IMG/VR virus record: IMGVR_UViG_3300032167_000083
Coordinates: 1 to 64,000 of that record
DNA length: 64,000 nt
Strand: one strand, 5' to 3'
Source of the DNA: a virus
Taxonomy: Duplodnaviria; Caudoviricetes
Below the pieces are notes generated by a model. It did no database searches, was not told where the DNA came from, and saw nothing but the letters and a program-made list of their open reading frames with translations. Positions 3,722 through 46,359 of the stretch are shown one piece after another. Made by a program: the position numbers and the translations under genes. The first letter of the stretch is position 1. Every line of letters begins with the position of its first letter.

Positions 3722-4297
3722 ATGAATAGATTAATTAATCTAATTATAAATAAAAGAATAAATAAAAATATAAATAAATTCACAATTGCTAAATTCGTAA
3801 ATGATTATAAAAAACAATTTATTTCTGGAGAACTTGATTTTAATTGTTTACATAACTTGCATATTATAATGTGGTCACGTATAGTACAATACTATGAGGA
3901 TTATATCTTTGGTCCAGTACGAATAAATAAAGTAAAACAAAAAATATTAAACAAAATGATGAAAGATATTAAAAAACAAACATCTTCTTTGCACTGTTGT
4001 GATAGATTTGAATTTATTAGTAATCTTAAATCTTTGTTCAGAACACTTAAAAAATATAATTTTAATTGTTTTGCTTGTTATTATTCTTGTAATTGTTATT
4101 CTGATCATTATCATGATTATAAAACATATAATGCTTGTGAATGTTGTCCTGTTCTTAGATGGAGAATTGGAAATTGTACTGAATATGCTAAATTATATCA
4201 AATTTCTAAATTGGCTGATGGTGGATATTTTAAATTACATAAAGTAGATATAATTAATTTATCTAAAGAAATTAGAGATTTACAATGGAGAAAATAA
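3722..4297 (+). CDS. Cys-rich hypothetical protein
   Basis: 191 aa; CFAC...CECCP motifs. Confidence 0.7.
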   Translation: MNRLINLIINKRINKNINKFTIAKFVNDYKKQFISGELDFNCLHNLHIIMWSRIVQYYEDYIFGPVRINKVKQKILNKMMKDIKKQTSSLHCCDRFEFISNLKSLFRTLKKYNFNCFACYYSCNCYSDHYHDYKTYNACECCPVLRWRIGNCTEYAKLYQISKLADGGYFKLHKVDIINLSKEIRDLQWRK

Positions 4298-26788: not shown

Positions 26789-27253
26789 CTACTTCAAAAC
26801 ACCTCTTTCTATTAGGAGTTTATATGTAGTACCAATCAACATAGCTAATTTACTATTTCTCCTTGCTTGACCTGATGAATATAAGGACCAATCAAATGTC
26901 TTTAGCAAATGGTTAACACCTGCATATGATCCCTCTCTAATATCTCTTAGATATTCATATTCATCTCTTGACAAATAGCTGCAATTGAAATATACATCAT
27001 GAGCATATTCAAATTGTAAATCTGCTAATTGACTTCCTGTTTGTTTAATATTGCATTTTGATAAATAACAATCAGGTTTCTTATTTTGAGTTGATTTCAC
27101 CAAATCTCTTGTGAAATCCCAAATCCATCCTTCTTTGAATAGATTATCTTCAATATTATAACAAAGAACTTTCTTGTTTTGTTTGTTAACTTTTAAAATG
27201 GATATAATTACCCATTTTTTGTTTATTATTGAACCGATATCATATTTAATCAT
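26789..27253 (-). CDS. hypothetical protein
   Basis: 154-aa ORF with AGGAGG RBS. Confidence 0.7.
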   Translation of the reverse strand: MIKYDIGSIINKKWVIISILKVNKQNKKVLCYNIEDNLFKEGWIWDFTRDLVKSTQNKKPDCYLSKCNIKQTGSQLADLQFEYAHDVYFNCSYLSRDEYEYLRDIREGSYAGVNHLLKTFDWSLYSSGQARRNSKLAMLIGTTYKLLIERGVLK

Positions 27254-27268
27254 TTGATATTCCTCCTT

Positions 27269-27604
27269 TTATTTTACACTTTTTATTATATAGTTTTTAT
27301 CCCAATCTGTCAACTCATCAAAGATAACAGTTATCATTGTATCTTCTTCGAATTGTTCTGGATTGTCTGTTGTGAAGCTATATAATTTGTCATTAGGATG
27401 TCTAATAATAATTGTATTACCTTCAATTGAATGTATTGCACATTCTCTTGTTCTGTTAGATTTAACATACAAAGGTGTGATTAATAAAGCTAAAATAGAA
27501 ATAAATACAATTACCCCAAGTATTCGCTTGTTTCTCCTTTCTCTCTTTTTTCTTTGAACTTCTCTGAGGAATCTTCTTCCCTCAAATGAATAGTTTTTCT
27601 CCAT
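27269..27604 (-). CDS. membrane-anchored protein, paralog of 32860..33297
   Basis: Basic N-terminus, one TM; R.C.I...I.HPN...Y.F...I.V.F.EL shared. Confidence 0.7.
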   Translation of the reverse strand: MEKNYSFEGRRFLREVQRKKRERRNKRILGVIVFISILALLITPLYVKSNRTRECAIHSIEGNTIIIRHPNDKLYSFTTDNPEQFEEDTMITVIFDELTDWDKNYIIKSVK

Positions 27605-28391
27605 AACTATTCTCCTTTCGTAAAATATTAGAGTGTTGACCACTCAAGTAAAGCTTAATAATATTAAACTTGACTTCAATAGTCAACTGCGGAAATCCAG
27701 AAATTTCGCCTATATAGAGTTTTATTTTTAAAAATATTCAGTTTGAAAATATTTTTCTATTTTTTAATCGCCCTATAACATTAAACCCTCTGGGATTTTC
27801 ACAAAACCCATACAGTATTTCACAATAAACCATAGGCTGTCTGGGATAAAATGTTTTGTCTTTCTTTAAAACATTGCCAACATTACCTAACACACCGAGT
27901 CCTTCCTGTTCCACTGTACTTTTTCACCTCCTTATCTTATGTACAAGGTGGATTTCCCACACCAAATAGTTCTTTGAAGGGTGAACATTTCAATTTCCCA
28001 TGTAAACAAATTCAAATAATTAACACGCATAGCCTTCCACAACTATGCATATTAATTGTGTATTTTTGAATTTGCTGAGATATTATATAATATCTCTTTA
28101 AACACATCAGAAATTATTTCTATATTTCTAATATGCTTAAAGAGACACTACATAAGTGCCTCTTGTTTTTTATTAGTCGAACTTTGTAGCCCAACCACTA
28201 TCATCTCTTTCTGGATTGTACATTTAAATCACCTCCATATTCTCATCAGAGTATTTTAACTCTTTTGAGTAATATTCCTCTATTGATATCTTTCCATCAA
28301 GATAATCTTTATCTCTTTGAGAAAGTCCATCATAGTCTTTAAGTGATAAATAACAATATAATGAATATGCATTCATTTTCAATACATCCTT

Positions 28392-30047
28392 TCATATAGT
28401 ATAATATTCTTCATTCCAATCATCATTGCAAGCATAATGACTTCTACCTTGTTTCTCTAAAGAATAAGTACTAACCTTGATTTCTCCACAATGTCCTTCT
28501 GTTACAATCTCTGCAACAAAATCCATATATTCTGGATTATCATTATTATACTTATTTTTTATAAGCATATGGATATATTTATTTTTGTAAGAAGAATCAA
28601 CATAATAATAACGTTTTTTATAACCATTAGTTCTCAGCCAACTTTTGATTACTCCCTTTAATTCTCTCTTCGTTCTTCTTTCTTCTCTTGTTTTCATAAT
28701 ATATTTCCTTTCCCCACCAAGCCAATGGTAAATCATTATTCACTTGCTTGTATCTTTTATTATTTTTTGTTCGCAAATAATGACTGTTTATTATGAAGTA
28801 TAGAGTATTAAATACTCAATCGAGAACAAGATAATGTGTTGCTTGTGATGTTATATCTTACTCTTGCTCTCTGTTCAGTATTTAATGATTAATTACACTC
28901 ATAATACAATACGTTTTTCCATCGGATACTTTTACATAATATGGTCCTGCAAAACTATAAAACACTTTTGCGTTCGGAAAAAGTTTTTTGACAGCCAGTT
29001 TTGGTGTTCTGGCTTCTACTTCAATAGTAGGACCTTTTTCGTTTTCTAATGTTAATGTAAATTTCATATCAATTACTCCTTTCTTGACCCTTATACGTAT
29101 AGGAAGATATGTATTGAAACCCATACAAGAGTTTATTTTTTCTTTAGAGTATTAAATACTCAAAAAGAGAGAGGAACATTTATTCCGCAATTCCGCATTG
29201 TTCCTCTCCTATTTTCAGTATTTAATTATTTAACTGACAATAATTCAAAAAGAGTATTGGCTTTTTCAAAATCATTACCTTTATATATTACTCCTTTATT
29301 TTCAAGCAATACCTCTACTTCTGAAATTTTTCCTTTTCCATCATCAGATATCGAAAAGATATAGATTAATGCTATGTATTCATTTTCGTTTGTTTTACCA
29401 AACCTATCCATACTTGCGGCTTGTACGAACAAAGAATGTTCTTCATCTGTTATATAGTCTATTGGATAGCATTTTCCTTCAATTACTCTGTATTCACCTT
29501 TGTACCCATCTGTCAACATGAACTCTTGATATAAACTACCATCTTCATCAACATGCCATTCAAATGGATCTGGAGAATACATATCTCGCATCATAGCTTC
29601 TTCATTGTCGTCTATACGTTTCTTTGAACGTATTCCGTTGCCACCATTATATAAGCGTTCCCAACGGATATCTCTTCCTGCTGTTTTGCTCTTGCCGTAA
29701 TTGAGGTAATCTTTACCTCTTATGTTTCGAGATTTGTGAAAAATATTTGCTTTACGTGTTCTTCTTCTGGCTTCTTTATTTGGATTAACAAATAATTCAT
29801 TATCCAGAAGGTTATCTTCTTCTTCAAACAGCATCATTATTTCATATGCTTTGAAATCATCATACAAATCTCCGAAAAGACTCGCTTCATCGATGCCACT
29901 TAAATTTGTTTCTAATTCCTCAAGTCTTGAGGTTTTTTCTGTTTCTTTTTTGTTGTTTTCTACAACAAGTTCCTCCACTGCTGCCTCAAATAAAGCTTTA
30001 TCAAAAGCTTCTTCTGCTTTCAGCAATGCTTTTTCTAATGTTGTCAT
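28392..30047 (-). CDS. three hypothetical genes (28392-~28697, 28882-~29067, 29226-30047) separated by structured spacers
   Basis: ORFs with RBSs. Confidence 0.65.
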
Positions 30048-30386
30048 ATTAAATCATTCCTTTCGTTTAACTTATGTACCCATCTCATAAGACTACACCT
30101 ATGACACTGAGCTATGCTCAAAATGTAGTTTTGTAATTATATCAGGTATAGAGTAATTTAATACTCAAGCAAGCACACGATAAAGCTCGTATGCTTAATC
30201 AGTATTAAATTGTAATCAAGAATATCAAGTCGCTTTAGGTAAAAATGAGACAACTCAGCAATATCTGAGGTGGTTGCTCCGTCTTTGCTAAAGATATTCT
30301 CTAAAGGAATATATCCTCTTTAAATCACACAATAAAACTCGTATGATTTAAGGAAGAGGGTTCAAGCTGAACCCATTCCTGTTTTA

Positions 30387-31292
30387 TTATCTTTTTAATA
30401 ACCAATCTGAAATTGATAATACTTTTTTGTTGGTTGATTGACCTGAATTAACAGTTAACCATCTCTGGTATTCTAATTCACCATAATGATTAACAATATA
30501 ATCAACAGCAGCACCTAATGTGCTGAATCTCTCTGCCCAAAGAGTGTTACTGTCACTCTTTTCGAACCAATACAAATCAACTTTATCTGTGTTTGGATAA
30601 CACAATATAACAGCAGGCTCTGTATTTGTCCACCCAAACCCTATCGCTTTAAAACATTTTGAGATATTGTATCTCATCATATTTAAACGATATTCCATTT
30701 CTTGTGCCTTTTCCAAGCTGTTAAATTTTTGTTCTTGAAGTACTGGAGCAAAAGGAACATTAAGTTTGTAACTCTTTTCAATAAGAGCATACATCTCTTC
30801 CTCATTGCCCAAATCATCATAGACAGTTGTTTTACCATCTAATTTAATTTCCTCTGTAATCGTATTAGAAATCTTATTGATGATAACAGGACGATTATCT
30901 GACTTCAATAACTCAGAGAGCTTTTTAGCAGCTTCTTCAGCTTCTTTGATAAGCTCATCTGTTGTCCATTTATGTCCATCAGAGGCATAATTGAATGTCA
31001 TATAATCTCCATAATGAGCATAATCCCATCCAATCCATACTCCATCAGGATGATAATCTAACTTACCATTAAAAGTAAGTCCACCATGTACATCTAATGG
31101 AATCTCATCATAATGAGTATTCTCATATTTAGTACCCTTAACATTGAGGTAAGTACATGGATGTGTTCCAAGATTAAGAATAATCCATTCTACATCATCT
31201 GTAGTTCCTGTAGCTAAAGGTCCTACATATCTGGTTTCTCTGCTGTAGTTCATTTCTACAATCTTGTGTGTTCTGTTCATGTTCTTTTTCAT
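30387..31292 (-). CDS. hypothetical phage protein
   Basis: N-terminal HPCTY...VHGGLTF...WIGWDYAH module common in phages. Confidence 0.7.
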   Translation of the reverse strand: MKKNMNRTHKIVEMNYSRETRYVGPLATGTTDDVEWIILNLGTHPCTYLNVKGTKYENTHYDEIPLDVHGGLTFNGKLDYHPDGVWIGWDYAHYGDYMTFNYASDGHKWTTDELIKEAEEAAKKLSELLKSDNRPVIINKISNTITEEIKLDGKTTVYDDLGNEEEMYALIEKSYKLNVPFAPVLQEQKFNSLEKAQEMEYRLNMMRYNISKCFKAIGFGWTNTEPAVILCYPNTDKVDLYWFEKSDSNTLWAERFSTLGAAVDYIVNHYGELEYQRWLTVNSGQSTNKKVLSISDWLLKR

Positions 31293-31426: not shown

Positions 31427-31483
31427 TGTCTGTTTCGGCTCATGCCATCATCAGGTCCTGGACTTTTACCAGAACGACAGACA
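31427..31483 (-). ncRNA. type III hammerhead ribozyme
   Basis: UGUCU-GUC^-GUUCUGG/CCAGGAC-CUGAUGA-U-GGC AUGA GCC-GAAA-CAGACA: complete catalytic core and stems I-III. Confidence 0.9.
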
Positions 31484-31980: not shown

Positions 31981-32352
31981 CTATTGAGGAGCAACTACCA
32001 AGCATCCTAATGATGCATAATAATTGGTATCAACATCAACTTCACCATCACAATAAATTAATGGCTCAATTGTTGTGTATTCATCTTCATATGATGCTAT
32101 TCTTGAACCATAACAACATACTACTTTTAGATGAATATTACTACCAATCATATTTGATAGCTCCTCAAGAGTATATTCCTCATCATCAAGAAGAATATAT
32201 CCATCTTCTGTTCCATGACAAAACATAAGTAAGCCATGAGAAGATGAATTAACTACTGCAAAGTCAGCTTGATCAAGACCAACTCTACAAACGTCATTGA
32301 ATTCTTCTTGATTTATAAAGATATACTCTTTGGTACTTACACTATTAATCAT
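31981..32352 (-). CDS. acidic protein, possible caspase/CHAT-fold peptidase
   Basis: LLMFCHG...G.I.L.D...T.EEL...LKVVCCYG spacing resembles the His-Gly/Cys dyad of CHAT domains. Confidence 0.45.
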   Translation of the reverse strand: MINSVSTKEYIFINQEEFNDVCRVGLDQADFAVVNSSSHGLLMFCHGTEDGYILLDDEEYTLEELSNMIGSNIHLKVVCCYGSRIASYEDEYTTIEPLIYCDGEVDVDTNYYASLGCLVVAPQ

Positions 32353-32539
32353 AGTGAATACCTCCCTTCTGTTGTCATATCCAAAGGTTCCGACTATAGC
32401 GACAACTACTATAACCTTGCTTATATGCTCAAGACATATAAGACTAAAGGAAATCTCTTTCCTTTTACTAAACTCTATATAAAATTAACTATATAAAGTT
32501 TAATAAAAGAAAAGAGACTCATTTCTGAGCCTCATTCCT

Positions 32540-32752
32540 TTAATAAATTTCATTCCTGATAATATCATCAGGAGTGTATTTTTTTGTAAGGAGAGCAAAT
32601 TTTATAACGAATATGAAATCTGGCTCTGTTTTCCCATTTTCATAGCTCGACAAAGTCGCTCTTGTGATACCTAAAGCATCGGCAAGTTCTTGTTGAGTAA
32701 AACCAATTTTCTTTCGGGCATTTTTTATTCCGTTTGCAATATCGTATGCCAT
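32540..32752 (-). CDS. XRE/Cro-C1 family HTH regulator
   Basis: IKNARKKIGFTQQELADALGITRATLSSYENGKTEPD. Confidence 0.9.
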   Translation of the reverse strand: MAYDIANGIKNARKKIGFTQQELADALGITRATLSSYENGKTEPDFIFVIKFALLTKKYTPDDIIRNEIY

Positions 32753-32859
32753 ATTTTTTCCTCCTATAAGTATTTTTACCTGTAAAGCTTGTTTGTGTAT
32801 CACCAATTACGATTAACTAACCCGATACACTTAGATTAGTTAAAAGTTGAACATCAATT

Positions 32860-33297
32860 TTACTCGTTAATATCTTTGATACTTACAAGCTTAAGTTCCT
32901 GTTCTAATACAGGCTTTTCGACATCTTCTATAGAAACAAGATTTTGTTCTAATACAGGCTTTTCAACATCTTCTATAGATTTTAAAACTTCTTTTGGATT
33001 TCCTGAATTAACAGTATAATCCTCTTTGTTAAGCTTTAATTCATTAAAAGATACTTTTATTATAGTATCTTCTTTGTATAGATTACTATCATAAGCAAAG
33101 AAATCATAGTATTCTCCATTTGGATGAAGTACTGTAACTACTTTATCAGCTTCTTGAATAACTCTACAATTTCTAACTGTATGAGCTTTACTATAGGCTG
33201 TATAACCCAATGTCATTACTACTACTAACCCTGCAACCAATAAACCTTTTTTCATAACTTTCTCCTCAGCTCTTGATACTATCTCCACTGACCTCAT
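32860..33297 (-). CDS. membrane-anchored protein with duplicated SIEDVEKPVLEQ repeat
   Basis: N-terminal TM/signal; paralog of 27269 gene; near-perfect internal tandem repeat. Confidence 0.7.
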   Translation of the reverse strand: MRSVEIVSRAEEKVMKKGLLVAGLVVVMTLGYTAYSKAHTVRNCRVIQEADKVVTVLHPNGEYYDFFAYDSNLYKEDTIIKVSFNELKLNKEDYTVNSGNPKEVLKSIEDVEKPVLEQNLVSIEDVEKPVLEQELKLVSIKDINE

Positions 33298-33321: not shown

Positions 33322-33390
33322 TTTCTCCACTCTGCATTTACAAGGGCTTGTGACCTTCTATACTCGTCAATATAGGCTGCATTAGAGAAA
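33322..33390 (-). ncRNA. twister ribozyme (P1 type)
   Basis: UUUCUC U^AA UGCA GC-[P3 CUAUA/UAUAG]-AAG GUCACAAGCC CUU-GUAAA-UGCA GAGUG GAGAAA fits the twister consensus and both pseudoknots. Confidence 0.88.
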
Positions 33391-33410: not shown

Positions 33411-33695
33411 TTATTCGAAAGATACACTTTCAAGGAATTTTTTATATTCCTCTTCTTGTATTTTTTCCAGTTCTTCTTTTATGTTCGGTTCTTCTTCGAA
33501 CATTTCATAGGTTATGTCTTTTGCCCAATTTTCAAGAACTTTCATTCTTGTTTCTTCGTCAGCTTTTAAAAAAGCTTCGAATATAAAATTAAACAACTCG
33601 GTATCCATTTCGAATACTTGATATTGTTCTGGGCTTTCTACAACTATGTTAGTTGTATTTTTAATCTTGTTGTCTGTGATTGTAAATTCTTTCAT
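33411..33695 (-). CDS. acidic hypothetical protein, first gene of the minus-strand block
   Basis: ATG after AAAGGA RBS. Confidence 0.7.
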   Translation of the reverse strand: MKEFTITDNKIKNTTNIVVESPEQYQVFEMDTELFNFIFEAFLKADEETRMKVLENWAKDITYEMFEEEPNIKEELEKIQEEEYKKFLESVSFE

Positions 33696-34289
33696 GATTT
33701 TTCCTTTCTTGCCTTTTCGGGCTGACAACTTTCACATTTAATTAGGATAAGATGTCAAGCTTACCTACCTCATCTTTTGTGAGGATTTAATTAATGAATA
33801 CGTTAAAGTCGTTTCATTTATTCGACTTTACATATTCATTCATTTTTTTTATACATATCATATAATATCCAGTCTATTTCCAAAACTGAAAATTCTGAAA
33901 AAAATTTTTTTACCCACCAGAAACCCTACCTTTTCTCCCACTCCACAATTTTAAACAAAAAAAGAGAGATTGCAAAACACAACCCCTCCAAAAAGAAACA
34001 TAGACAAATCATCTTTCAAACCTCTCTCACATTCAAATCTTAATCTTTTTCAAACAATCCAACACCAAATCCTCACCAACTCCATCTATCCATCAACTTA
34101 TATTATCAACTCCAAAAAATCGATTCTACGTCTCTATCATTCAAAAAACTCTAATAAACAAAAATGAGATGAATAAATCATCTCAAAAAAAAAGAGAGAT
34201 TACCAAAGTAACCTCTCTTAATAAATTTATTTATATAATTTACGAATGAACTTACATTATTCACTTCGTTCACAGATGAACTCACATTA

Positions 34290-43023: not shown

Positions 43024-45038
43024 ATGCCCAATAGATTATTTTATACAGCTAAGTTAAAGAGTAGTTTTATTATTGAGAATCACTGTGATATACATAAAAA
43101 TTTCTATGAACTACTTATGGCAAATAATATAATTTCATTAGCTGATTCTCAAATGTTGAGAACTATTCGACAATTAACAAATCATGAAATTGATTTGGAA
43201 AAATTGGAAGATTGGTATCGGGAACGAGATATTATTAAAAGACGAAAAAATTCTAAAGAAAACAAAGAACGAATAAGACAATTACAAAATAATATTTATA
43301 ACATGATGTTTATACCCGAATATATCACTGTGGTGATAGAAAAAGAAAAAGATTATGATTTATTCTTTAAAAGAGGATTTAAATTTAATGGTGATAAATA
43401 TACGAGATTGTCTTGCTCTGCTTCTCAGGCAAGAGTAAATACTGTTGTTTTTATAAAAGATGAACTTAAACAACAAATGCAGGATATTCTTAATAATGGA
43501 CGAAAGATGGATAAGCCGATGGCTCCAAGTAAATTTAATGCTTATTTTGGGTTGTATTCATCTGCTACAAAACAAGTAACATATCCAAGATTTTGTATTA
43601 TTCCAGATTATTGTGAGATGGATAGAGTTAAGGTTGATTTTGTAACTACTACAGATGATTTCTCTGATGATATTCTTGATGAAAGAACTATTGATGTGGA
43701 GTTTAATCGTTTTGATGGAAATGGATTAATTAGTCCTCAAATGGCTGAACAATGGAGTATAGATATTGGTATTTATAATCCTAATGCAGAAAATGAAGAT
43801 GATAAAGGATATATTGCTTGTCAATTTTGTATTAGACAAAGTTTTACAAAAGGCATGTTATGTACTTTTGATTTTCTTAAATTTTGTAAGGAAAAGAATA
43901 ATGAAAATTATATTATTAAAGATGTTTATGGACATAATGTTGATTTAAGAGAGATTGATGTTATTCTTACTGAAGGACAAGTTAAAATGTTCGATCATTT
44001 TGGATATGAAAAAGATGGTGAATGGATTCCATCTCAAGAAGTCTTTGAAAATAATATTAAGAAAAATAATTTATTTTGGGGTGTGACTCGTTTTACACCT
44101 GAACAAGATGATAGAGTTCTTATTACCAATTATCAATTTTTACAAACCTTAAAAATGACAGATGAAGATATAGAAGAATTATGTCAAGATACTGTTAATT
44201 ATTTTAAGGGTGTTTGTTCTGGAGATTATAATTATGCGTTATTGTTTATGCTTGGAGATAGTATGAATGAGAGAAAGATGCAGAATTATATGAAATCCAG
44301 TGATAATTATTGGTTAAAAAGTTTAATATGCAATCCTAATTTATTCAATGATAAATATACAAAGCAAAAGATTAAAGATTGTATTGAAAGAAGAATAGAA
44401 CAGGCTTGTATAGGAAAAATTTTGGTTGAAGGAAATTTTCAGGTTCTTATTCCAGACAGTTATGCTTTTATGGAGTGGTGTTGTTATAGAGATCCAATGA
44501 AAGTAAAAGGTTTATTAAAAGCAGGACAATGCTATAGTAAATTTTGGAAAGACAAAGATAAACATAAAATTTTATCACAAAGGTCTCCATTAACTCATTT
44601 TAGTGAATGTCATTTAATGGATGTAGTTTGGAATGATGATATTGATGAATGGTTTAAATATAGTTATACTGGATTTTATACAAATATACATGATGAAAGT
44701 GTTATGCTTTGGTCTGGTGCAGATTTTGACTATGATATTTGTGCGAGTACATCTAATCCAGTAATGATTAGATGTGTTTATAAAAACCAGAAACCAGTAA
44801 CATATGATGTTCCTAAACCAAAGAAAATGTTATTTACAGAAACAGATTTATATAATTTTGATAAAAAAAGTTTTGGTTCTTTAATAGGTCCTCTTACGAA
44901 TCATGGAACAAGTATTATATCTTTAATTTCATATTATAGAGATAGATATAATAAATATCATGATGAACTTGATTTAAGAAAGTTAAGATTATTAGAAGAT
45001 AGATTAAAGATGGTATGTGCAGGTCAGTCAAGACAGAT
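43024..45038 (+). CDS. YonO-like single-subunit RNA polymerase, exon 1
   Basis: SASQAR, FDGNGLIS, FCIR..FTKG, NYQFLQ, RSP and GADFDYD motifs; synteny with HU, terminase and capsid as in SPbeta. Confidence 0.85.
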
Positions 45039-46359
45039 GAAATATTGTCTGCGTATATGGTAACATATATGAAAAATTAGTGGTGAACCTATAAATATAG
45101 GGTGTATAATTTACGGTAAGGAATCGTAGGAAATGACGATTAGAAATTATGCTAACAGGGGATTCTAAGGATTTTTATTAATCTATGAAAATCCTGTGGT
45201 AAGCTATTTTTTGGTGGTTGTAAAAATTAAAAAGGAGGTGAAAAAGGGTAAAATGAAAGAAGGATATAGACCTCATAATTTTATTGATAGAACGAATATG
45301 AGATTTGGAAAATTAGTATGTCAAGAATATTTAGGACAAGGAAAATGGAAATGTTTGTGTGATTGTGGAAACACACATATTGTAAAAGGTGATGATTTAC
45401 CTGTGAATAGTAAAAAAAGAGGAGTTAAGTCTTGTGGGTGTGGGCATTTAAGTAAAACTTGTCCTGATATTAATTATTTTAAAAACATTAATACTTCTGA
45501 AAAAGCATACATACTTGGATTATTAGCATCTGATGGAAATATTTATAATTATAATAATAGTTATTATGCTACGATTAGATTAAAATATACAGATGTAGAT
45601 ATCTTAGAAAAAGTAAAAAAAACTATGAATATAACTTCAAAAATCACATATCAAGAAGAAAATGTTGTTTTCCCACAAGGTAATCAAGGTATTGCTAAGA
45701 TGTGTTGTTTAAGGATTTATGGAAAAGAAATTATTAATGATTTAATTTCGTATGGTTTAGTTCCAAATAAAACATTACATTTGAAAGTTGATTATAAAAA
45801 AATACCAAAAGAATTCGTAAGAGATTATTTAAGAGGATTATGGGATGGAGATGGAACTTTTGGTTTTTATGAACGACAAAATAATTCTCATACATATGAA
45901 GTTCATTATATTGGCTCTTCTGAAATAGTTAATGATATTAAAGATATTATCTTAGAAAATTTTCCACATTACAAAATTGATACTTGGCATGCTAAAGAAT
46001 GTAATGAAAATATTTTTAGATTAGGGTTATCTCGTAGAGATGATTGTATAGAATTTTTAAATTTTTTATACAAAGATGCTAATATATATTTAGATAGAAA
46101 ATATCAGAAGTATATTGATTGTATAGATTTAGTTAAATCTATTCCTTTTAAAAAATCACCATGTAGAAATTAGAAACTTAATCGACTATCCCAAATGGAG
46201 GTGGAATTCCTCAATAGGAGTAGGGGAGAGGTGAAAATCCTTTCTGGGTGAAACCCCCTTAAATCGAAGTGCCACAATCCTAATTATTTAGGATTAAGAT
46301 ATAGTCAAAACCGACTCATATGAGTGTTAAAGTACTATGAAAATAGCGGTATGTAAATG
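45039..46359 (+). mobile_element. group I intron (IA2-like) with homing endonuclease
   Basis: Exon ends in U, intron ends in G; P3 GTGGT/GCCAC, P7 GACTAT/ATAGTC, S element AAGATATAGTC, P8 AATCCTAA/TTAGGATT; splicing restores Q-I-D-K-T-K-I-G. Confidence 0.9.
45253..46173 (+). CDS. intron-encoded LAGLIDADG homing endonuclease
   Basis: YILGLLASDG and YLRGLWDGDG motifs, YL.RKY; N-terminal RFGKL..WKCLCDCG..SCGC module. Confidence 0.88.
   Translation: MKEGYRPHNFIDRTNMRFGKLVCQEYLGQGKWKCLCDCGNTHIVKGDDLPVNSKKRGVKSCGCGHLSKTCPDINYFKNINTSEKAYILGLLASDGNIYNYNNSYYATIRLKYTDVDILEKVKKTMNITSKITYQEENVVFPQGNQGIAKMCCLRIYGKEIINDLISYGLVPNKTLHLKVDYKKIPKEFVRDYLRGLWDGDGTFGFYERQNNSHTYEVHYIGSSEIVNDIKDIILENFPHYKIDTWHAKECNENIFRLGLSRRDDCIEFLNFLYKDANIYLDRKYQKYIDCIDLVKSIPFKKSPCRN

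Follow-up and report, generated by a model that had tools for sequence, protein, structure and literature searches.

In a window of 64,000 nucleotides from an uncultured virus (bases 34935-98934 of the 102,205-base IMG/VR record IMGVR_UViG_3300032167_000083, whose completeness is estimated at 66%), four gaps between minus-strand genes each carry an RNA hairpin in which a G stands opposite a G and whose 3' tail can pair with the start of its 3' arm. Judged from the nucleotide sequence, the four elements are probably (we would put the probability at roughly 0.6) intercistronic processing sites for a host enzyme of the RNase III type, spread along one long early minus-strand messenger RNA (mRNA). 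A repeated RNase III-like processing site was among the possibilities raised by a first, sequence-only reading of the window, and it now appears to be supported by a core shared with annotated sites of phage SPO1, by arrays in two other contigs where SPO1-like sites and sites of the window type stand together, and by swaps of the hairpin with ribozymes.

The mechanism that we envisage begins with binding of the two-turn helix by a double-strand-specific endonuclease, most likely the host RNase III, which would nick the 3' strand at or beside the G.G mismatch; the model is Bs-RNase III at the SP82 and SPO1 sites, which have the same core. The upstream message would then end in the upper hairpin, by which its 3' end would be protected, and the freed 3' arm would pair with the conserved tail to give the hairpin GAGUN...NACUC, beginning exactly at the mismatch G. 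Flush with the new 5' terminus, this hairpin should shield the downstream monophosphate end from 5'-dependent decay of the RNase J1 type. The folds, their conservation and the shared core are observed features, and the refolding role is one that we infer. At other junctions in this phage group, twister and pistol ribozymes would do the same job.

The four hairpins and their strand

Sizeable open reading frames (mechanical calls, here and below) near the four hairpins lie without exception on the minus strand and have strong AGGAG-type ribosome sites; most of the genes neighbouring the hairpins have no PHROG or Pfam match. Between 30387 and 27604, four of the five successive gene gaps carry the hairpin on the minus strand with minus-strand genes on both sides, and it is absent from the fifth, the gap of 15 nucleotides (nt) at 28377-28391. 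The sequence-only reading had spoken of four consecutive spacers: the elements do lie where it located them, on the minus strand, and fill four gaps, but the empty gap falls between them. The copies are laid out as follows (bp, base pairs).

27630..27687, minus strand: copy 1; long hairpin 27687-27635, 5' arm 27687-27678, 3' arm 27644-27635
27677 and 27645, minus strand: mismatch G's of copy 1
27645-27631, minus strand: alternative hairpin of copy 1, GAGUG..CACUC, 5 bp, followed by the tail UA
28802..28886, minus strand: copy 2; long hairpin 28886-28807, 5' arm 28886-28877, mismatch G's 28876 and 28817
28817-28803, minus strand: alternative hairpin of copy 2
29146..29226, minus strand: copy 3; long hairpin 29226-29151, 5' arm 29226-29217, mismatch G's 29216 and 29161
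29161-29147, minus strand: alternative hairpin of copy 3
30150..30211, minus strand: copy 4; long hairpin 30211-30155 with an 11-bp lower stem, 5' arm 30211-30201, mismatch G's 30200 and 30166
30166-30151, minus strand: alternative hairpin of copy 4

The copies differ in their position relative to the genes. At copy 1 the downstream gene starts with the ATG at 27604 and its Shine-Dalgarno sequence (SD) lies 17 nt past the 3' arm. The upstream stop TAA (28884-28882) falls inside the 5' arm of copy 2, the 5' arm of copy 3 begins at the final base of the upstream stop TAA (29228-29226), and copy 4 lies 176 nt downstream of the preceding stop codon.

The word TTGAGT-N6-10-ACTCTA occurs four times in the 64-kb window, every time at one of the four sites, against a shuffle expectation of 0.06, a count not attained in any of 100 shuffles. 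When both strands of the complete source record were scanned with a descriptor, seven matches had a stem of at least 6 bp (shuffle mean 2.72); the lower stems of copies 1-4 measured 10, 10, 10 and 11 bp in it, and the sole other long-stem match (11 bp, genome 29638-29699) has no ACUC tail. In JGI metagenome contigs the two-part word gave 39 matches at 38 loci, all of them chance, with lower stems of 3-5 bp only.

Minimum-energy folding of the minus strand gives one long hairpin for each of copies 1-4, with folding free energies (dG) of -24.8, -23.9, -30.8 and -25.4 kcal/mol and with the two G's opposed and unpaired in all four; the exact hairpins have 23, 22, 28 and 23 pairs and dG of -23.3, -23.1, -29.8 and -24.6 kcal/mol. 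The claim that the basal stems pair in every copy around a fixed G-G mismatch is therefore borne out, with lower stems of 10-11 bp. So is the argument for RNA drawn from the U-G wobbles of copy 1, which folds at -24.8 on the minus strand and at only -11.6 on the plus strand, where two U.G pairs turn into C.A mismatches. The alternative 3' hairpin GAGU(A/G)...(U/C)ACUC, for which compensatory change had been proposed, is present in four of the four window copies, and this second fold covaries as well. A K-turn or tandem G.A register, tried by eye, was discarded because the stems of copies 1 and 2 would then fall out of register. About 140 nt upstream of copy 4, a free-standing repeat of its upper hairpin (30171-30196) was noted on the minus strand at 30322-30349; the differences between the two preserve pairing, by eye a G-C to U-A replacement.

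Relatives, the SPO1 core and exchange with ribozymes

Two routes led to relatives. An exact 19-mer search gave two contigs with a mutual identity of 86%, L003 and L004, and a search with a neighbouring protein gave L005, a 75%-identity relative of the source record (G000) on a 117-kb contig. L005 has one copy, at 4080-4143, in which the UGA of the motif doubles as the stop codon of the upstream gene; copy 3 is the window copy nearest to it, and the L005 leader after the hairpin is homologous to the leader after copy 3 as far as the start codon. L003 and L004 have five sites each, in consecutive gene gaps and on the coding strand, and in L003 the upstream stop codon lies inside the 5' arm at four of the five sites and abuts the arm at site c. 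By tblastx at 1e-4, L003 and L004 have no match to the G000 record, to L005 or to the SPO1 module. We count three independent lineages: G000 with L005, L003 with L004, and SPO1 as a different variant.

The set of all sites comprises 15 sequences (window 4, L005 1, L003 5, L004 5), and the core is kept in every one: a closing U-A pair, the G.G opposition, a covarying next pair (A-U, U-A or C-G) and G-A-G on the 3' strand. In all 15 the lower stem measures 8-12 bp, the upper hairpin varies in sequence, and the 3' tail can pair with the first bases of the 3' arm. The sites contain 18-28 pairs, about two helical turns, with dG from -18.5 to -29.8 (18-25 pairs in L003, L004 and L005); a generic bacterial RNase III substrate is a near-continuous double helix of some 20 bp or more, and the window copies have 22-28 pairs. 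In nine sequences every one of the 80 lower-stem cells is paired, and three pairs show double changes; the covariation score was reached by none of 500 shuffles, and slid controls were 26-45% paired. For each of the 15 sites, an RNA beginning with the 3' mismatch G forms a hairpin that includes this first nucleotide (dG -2.7 to -7.6), and positions 4-6 of this refolded hairpin covary (GAGUA/UACUC, GAGUG/CACUC, GAGCA/UGCUC, GAGUAC/GUACUC); among chance descriptor hits, a hairpin of any sort starting at the G is found in just 4 of 14. Homologues with covariation, whose absence would have spoken against the motif, are provided by the L005 and L003/L004 sites, with compensatory changes in both folds.

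Covariance models gave a similar picture. Model R1 gives its nine training sites 54-66 bits and exceeds 25.8 bits nowhere in 701 kb of phage DNA where the 3' words occur by chance, and for model R3, built solely from the window and L005 copies, the L003/L004 sites make up five of the six matches in 435,374 bases. Searches for further relatives ended sooner. With the 273-amino-acid neighbour protein no more were found; the 184-amino-acid protein of L003 found itself only; and the 145-amino-acid gene family, which has 19 homologues, gave the L005 contig only in viral_contigs and nothing in metagenome_contigs or genome_contigs. The 19-mer itself occurs at three loci, among them L002, a chance match. 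The word TTGAGTATT-N2-6-TACTCTA was found in at least 117 stretches and the motif in none of the 80 loci examined, and L003-type words gave 12 new loci, none of them real. Against named phages, megablast of 27000-31000 returned no match, the neighbouring protein distant matches only (below 40% identity), and the L003 protein none.

The core is shared with SPO1, in whose record (AF031901) a series of sites between early genes is labelled 'RNAse III site RS-A' to 'RS-F'. In RS-A to RS-D, and likewise in a fifth site that separates genes 57 and 58, a lower stem ending in GGUU/AGCC is followed by U17-A52, by G18 opposite G51, by C19-G50, a small internal loop and an upper hairpin. A model built solely from these five sites, R2, matches site e of L003 (7234-7288; 27.7 bits, E 1.8e-6), site d of L003 (7861-7922; 20.7 bits, E 3.6e-4) and site d of L004 (2216-2271; 20.3 bits, E 4.9e-4). 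The matched sites read GUUG(C/U)UAG...CUAU(G/A)GAG and lie within the same arrays as sites of the window type. In the SPO1 module no Rfam family was found at E<=0.1; the SP82/SPO1 class has no Rfam family.

Other junctions of the same phage group are occupied by RNAs of other kinds.

33324-33388, minus strand: twister-P1 ribozyme (RF03160), 67.0 bits against a gathering score of 67.2, E 7.9e-14
31427-31483, minus strand: hammerhead-like core, weak match of 20.6 bits, E 1.7
L005 5849-5910, plus strand: pistol ribozyme (RF02679), 59.6 bits against a gathering score of 34.5, in the early operon of the relative
32447-32524, minus strand: near-perfect RNA duplex of about 29 bp, lengthened by an outer stem of 10 bp, in the gap ahead of gene 31981-32352

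The motif had been described as lying next to two ribozymes. This holds for twister-P1, which is flanked by genes 33411-33728 and 32860-33255 and has ahead of it a small hairpin that directly follows the upstream stop, but the second is a weak hammerhead-like match only. The latter reads CUGAUGA ... GAAAC, with a GUC site and good stems I and III, and follows a small gene and a hairpin; its activity is doubtful, because stem II looks defective and Rfam gives it 20.6 bits only. Each ribozyme, the L005 pistol included, has such a small hairpin ahead of it, just after the upstream gene. No match in the window reached the Rfam gathering score, the four copies gave microRNA-like noise only (E 0.74-2.3) and no match to a known Rfam motif, and the rest of the window gave nothing at E<=0.05.

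The genes behind these elements are related across elements of different kinds. The L005 gene 4229-4570, behind a G.G hairpin, is 68% identical to the window gene 33297-32860, behind the twister, and also has 29% identity (E 8.6e-10) to the window paralogue 27643-27269 behind copy 1, while the L005 gene 6031-6402, behind the pistol, is 31% identical to the window gene 32352-31981 behind the duplex of about 29 bp. That duplex is likely a second kind of target for a double-strand nuclease. Hairpins thus trade places with self-cleaving RNAs at equivalent junctions, as would be expected if both served to cut the message. At L005 3723-3775 on the plus strand there is also a two-state element without G.G, in which the 3' arm of a long hairpin (..UAUAGAG) overlaps the hairpin GAGAUAU-UUA-AUAUCUC; it is the same cut-and-refold logic in other letters.

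Host RNase III as the probable enzyme, and the alternatives

Several observations weigh against processing by a host RNase III. The SPO1 sites were annotated by the authors of the record, reportedly by likeness to sites mapped in SP82. Model R2 has no match to the four window copies or to L005 at E<=10, and R1 has none in SPO1; the link to SPO1 therefore consists of a short shared core and the mixed L003/L004 arrays and is not direct homology, and the window copies have to be regarded as a variant. The R3 matches to L003 and L004 are individually weak (E 0.14-1.1), the 100% pairing is partly by construction since the L003-L005 sites were chosen with a descriptor that demands pairing, and at 86% identity L003 and L004 are not independent of each other. 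No phage-encoded RNase III (PF14622) was found in the 66%-complete record, so the enzyme would have to be the host's, and the host may be a Firmicute, to judge from strong AGGAG-type Shine-Dalgarno sequences and from TTGACA-17-TATAAT promoters. Finally, copies 1 and 4 are not anchored to a stop codon, and copies 2-4 lie 65-93 nt from the next SD.

The same elements could be processing sites for another endonuclease, either an RNase Y-like single-strand enzyme of the host acting by the GAGUN..NACUC segment or a phage RNA endonuclease reading the U-G-N / N'-G-A core; we consider this unlikely, yet serious enough to be kept in mind. In the RNase Y version the cut would be made once a terminating ribosome has opened the lower stem, and the upstream stop codon does lie in or beside the 5' arm in eight of ten distinct sites, so that a ribosome terminating there would unpair the lower stem and release the 3' arm. 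RNase Y reportedly cuts after G in AU-rich RNA near a downstream stem-loop (cggR-gapA, sae). The invariant G-A-G and C-U-C, stricter than pairing alone requires, and the neighbouring genes, mostly without a known family, also count in favour of a different enzyme. However, the long helix and the G.G mismatch are conserved and covarying, and a single-strand nuclease would need neither; the same core is present in SPO1 sites annotated as RNase III sites, and no candidate phage nuclease was identified.

A related thought, to which we give a small chance of being right, is that the G.G hairpin is a distinct cut-and-refold signal with its own reader, be it a dedicated phage or host nuclease for the symmetric 5'-UGN/N'GA core or the RNA itself, freely swapped with twister, pistol and hammerhead. 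If this were true, the long-unexplained phage ribozymes would be protein-free versions of the same mRNA-cutting device.

Control at the level of transcription, by a leaky terminator, attenuator or antiterminator whose two states are the long and the 3' hairpin, seems improbable to us. Two mutually exclusive folds are indeed conserved, and the upper hairpin of copy 3, like that of L005a, has a G+C-rich stem between A- and U-tracts, for which reason that of copy 3 looks terminator-like; a simple terminator scan also flags the 3' hairpin of copy 1 as terminator-like. But a U-tract after a G+C-rich stem is found in only those two of the 15 sites (copy 3, L005a), the scan flags none of the long hairpins, which do not qualify as intrinsic terminators, GAGUN..NACUC is followed by UA(A/U) and not by a U-run, and the complexity of a sensor or ligand pocket is absent. 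The sequence-only reading had offered an antitermination element and a bistable switch as further options. The former is unlikely, for the motif does not stand once behind a promoter but returns at almost all gene junctions; the latter is right in that there are two folds and the alternative one covaries, but we read the second as refolding after the cut, not as a regulatory switch.

Still less probable is control of translation, in which the uncut ACUC tail would pair with the downstream SD (GGAGU) until the freed GAGUA captured the tail and opened the ribosome site. Four of the five downstream SDs in L003 are GGAGUG and lie 15-20 nt past the tail, and the SD of copy 3 is GGAGUA; those of copies 2, 3 and 4, however, are 65-93 nt off, those of copies 2 and 4 lack GAGU, and the pairing would amount to only 4-5 bp. 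Tail-SD pairing was set aside as fitting the L003 array only, and translation control would in any case be compatible with processing by RNase III and not opposed to it.

We find it very hard to credit a signal in the DNA, such as an operator for a dimeric protein on GAGTA-N-TACTC, a promoter of a phage RNA polymerase or a recombination joint. The 3' module is near-palindromic, genes for a helix-turn-helix regulator (32540-32806) and a YonO-like polymerase (43024-45063) are present, and the mosaic joints between G000 and L005 fall at hairpin elements. Yet the half-site spacing varies from 3 to 6 nt, changes in the half-sites preserve pairing, U.G pairs function on one strand only, and the mosaic joints are possibly a consequence of the repeated sequence. 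Sigma-70-like promoter matches occur at chance level (47 against 41.9 expected) and their distance from the motif is not constant, on which grounds the promoter version was rejected.

A new small self-cleaving ribozyme, which the sequence-only reading had wished to see tested, has a scarcely appreciable chance. Pistol and hatchet were reportedly found by searching beside twister and hammerhead, and the motif shares its operon with twister-P1 and the hammerhead-like core, has a relative (L005) with a pistol, and takes ribozyme-equivalent positions upstream of homologous genes. But outside the helices only U-G, G-A-G and C-U-C are invariant (about 8 nt), a junction, a pseudoknot and a conserved loop are all absent, leaving nothing from which an active site could be made, at E<=5 the copies match none of the Rfam ribozyme models, and the G.G motif lacks the separate small hairpin that both ribozymes have ahead of them.

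Several neighbouring features were noted in passing. In both phages the first operon gene has ahead of it a conserved TTGACA-containing region with the inverted repeat TTGACAT...TGTCA (33740-33800 on the minus strand of the window, L005 3020-3070 on the plus strand), which is probably the early promoter or operator. A perfect TTGACA-17-TATAAT match on the minus strand (27285-27313) falls within the 3'-terminal part of gene 27269-27604 and may serve the genes after it as an internal promoter. The plus-strand gene 43024-45063 encodes a 679-amino-acid protein with a match to the Pfam RdRP family PF05183 (E 1.6e-12), whose fold we take to be that of the YonO/crAss-type single-subunit phage RNA polymerases; the phage probably encodes its own RNA polymerase. 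Adjoining it on the plus strand is a gene for a LAGLIDADG-domain protein (45196-46173).

Comparison with known systems

The nearest known systems are the processing sites of SP82 and SPO1, reportedly studied by Panganiban & Whiteley 1983 and Mitra & Bechhofer 1994. The likeness extends to a coding-strand position between early genes, seen in all four copies and in L003, to the succession of a U-A-closed lower stem, G opposite G, one Watson-Crick pair and an upper hairpin with G-A-G on the 3' strand, and to an overall length of about two helical turns. Differences are also evident: the window copies lack the SPO1 words GUUG(C/U)UAG...(C/U)AUGGAGCC, their lower stem is A+U-rich, and their helix is nearly continuous, whereas SPO1 carries a 2x3 internal loop. 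Moreover, the counterpart of the ACUC tail in SPO1 belongs to an extended lower stem, whereas here a separate tail gives a flush 5' hairpin in 15 of the 15 sites, and the phages considered here are unrelated to SPO1 in the regions compared. According to PMC1935012, SP82 targets, which have internal loops, receive a single Bs-RNase III cut, on the downstream strand; PMC4838370 describes B. subtilis RNase III targets as stem-loops with small bulges, and products left without protection as quickly removed by RNase J1. If the window copies are indeed processed by RNase III, mRNA-processing signals of the SP82/SPO1 class also exist in unrelated phages that have not been cultured; what the nuclease recognises could be the minimal core common to both (a U-A pair, the G.G mismatch, the pair after it and a 3'-strand GAG).

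The early mRNA signals of T7 (R0.3, R0.5, R1, R1.1, R1.3) are not known to have a conserved refolding 5' hairpin; they also show no sequence likeness to the motif, and have an asymmetric internal loop in contrast to the single G.G mismatch here. They are alike in being repeated intercistronic hairpins of about two turns, in which a helix defect confines cutting to one strand (PMC1935012) and the hairpin stays on the upstream product.

Twister-P1, pistol and hammerhead resemble the G.G hairpin in where they stand: within the same G000 and L005 operons, they take equivalent places in front of homologous genes. Unlike them, the hairpin lacks a ribozyme core; its cutting would depend on a protein nuclease, and the new 5' end would carry a phosphate instead of a hydroxyl. 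A role of bacterial ribozymes in the processing of polycistronic transcripts has been suggested and, according to a review (PMC6765202), needs more work. The swaps described above lend comparative support to this unsettled idea for bacterial and phage self-cleaving ribozymes, and offer a system in which it could be tested.

Finally, the refolded hairpin recalls the 5' stem-loop stabilisers of the ompA, papA, ermC and aprE type, as GAGUN..NACUC would occupy the extreme 5' end of the downstream product. Hairpins at the 5' terminus are said to protect against 5'-end-dependent decay (work cited in PMC3997798 and PMC7509114). In contrast to these stabilisers, the hairpin here would form only once a cut frees its 5' half, and the protection we ascribe to it is inferred. 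With the tail built in, one cut would yield both a protected 3' end and a protected 5' end, a design simple enough to be testable.

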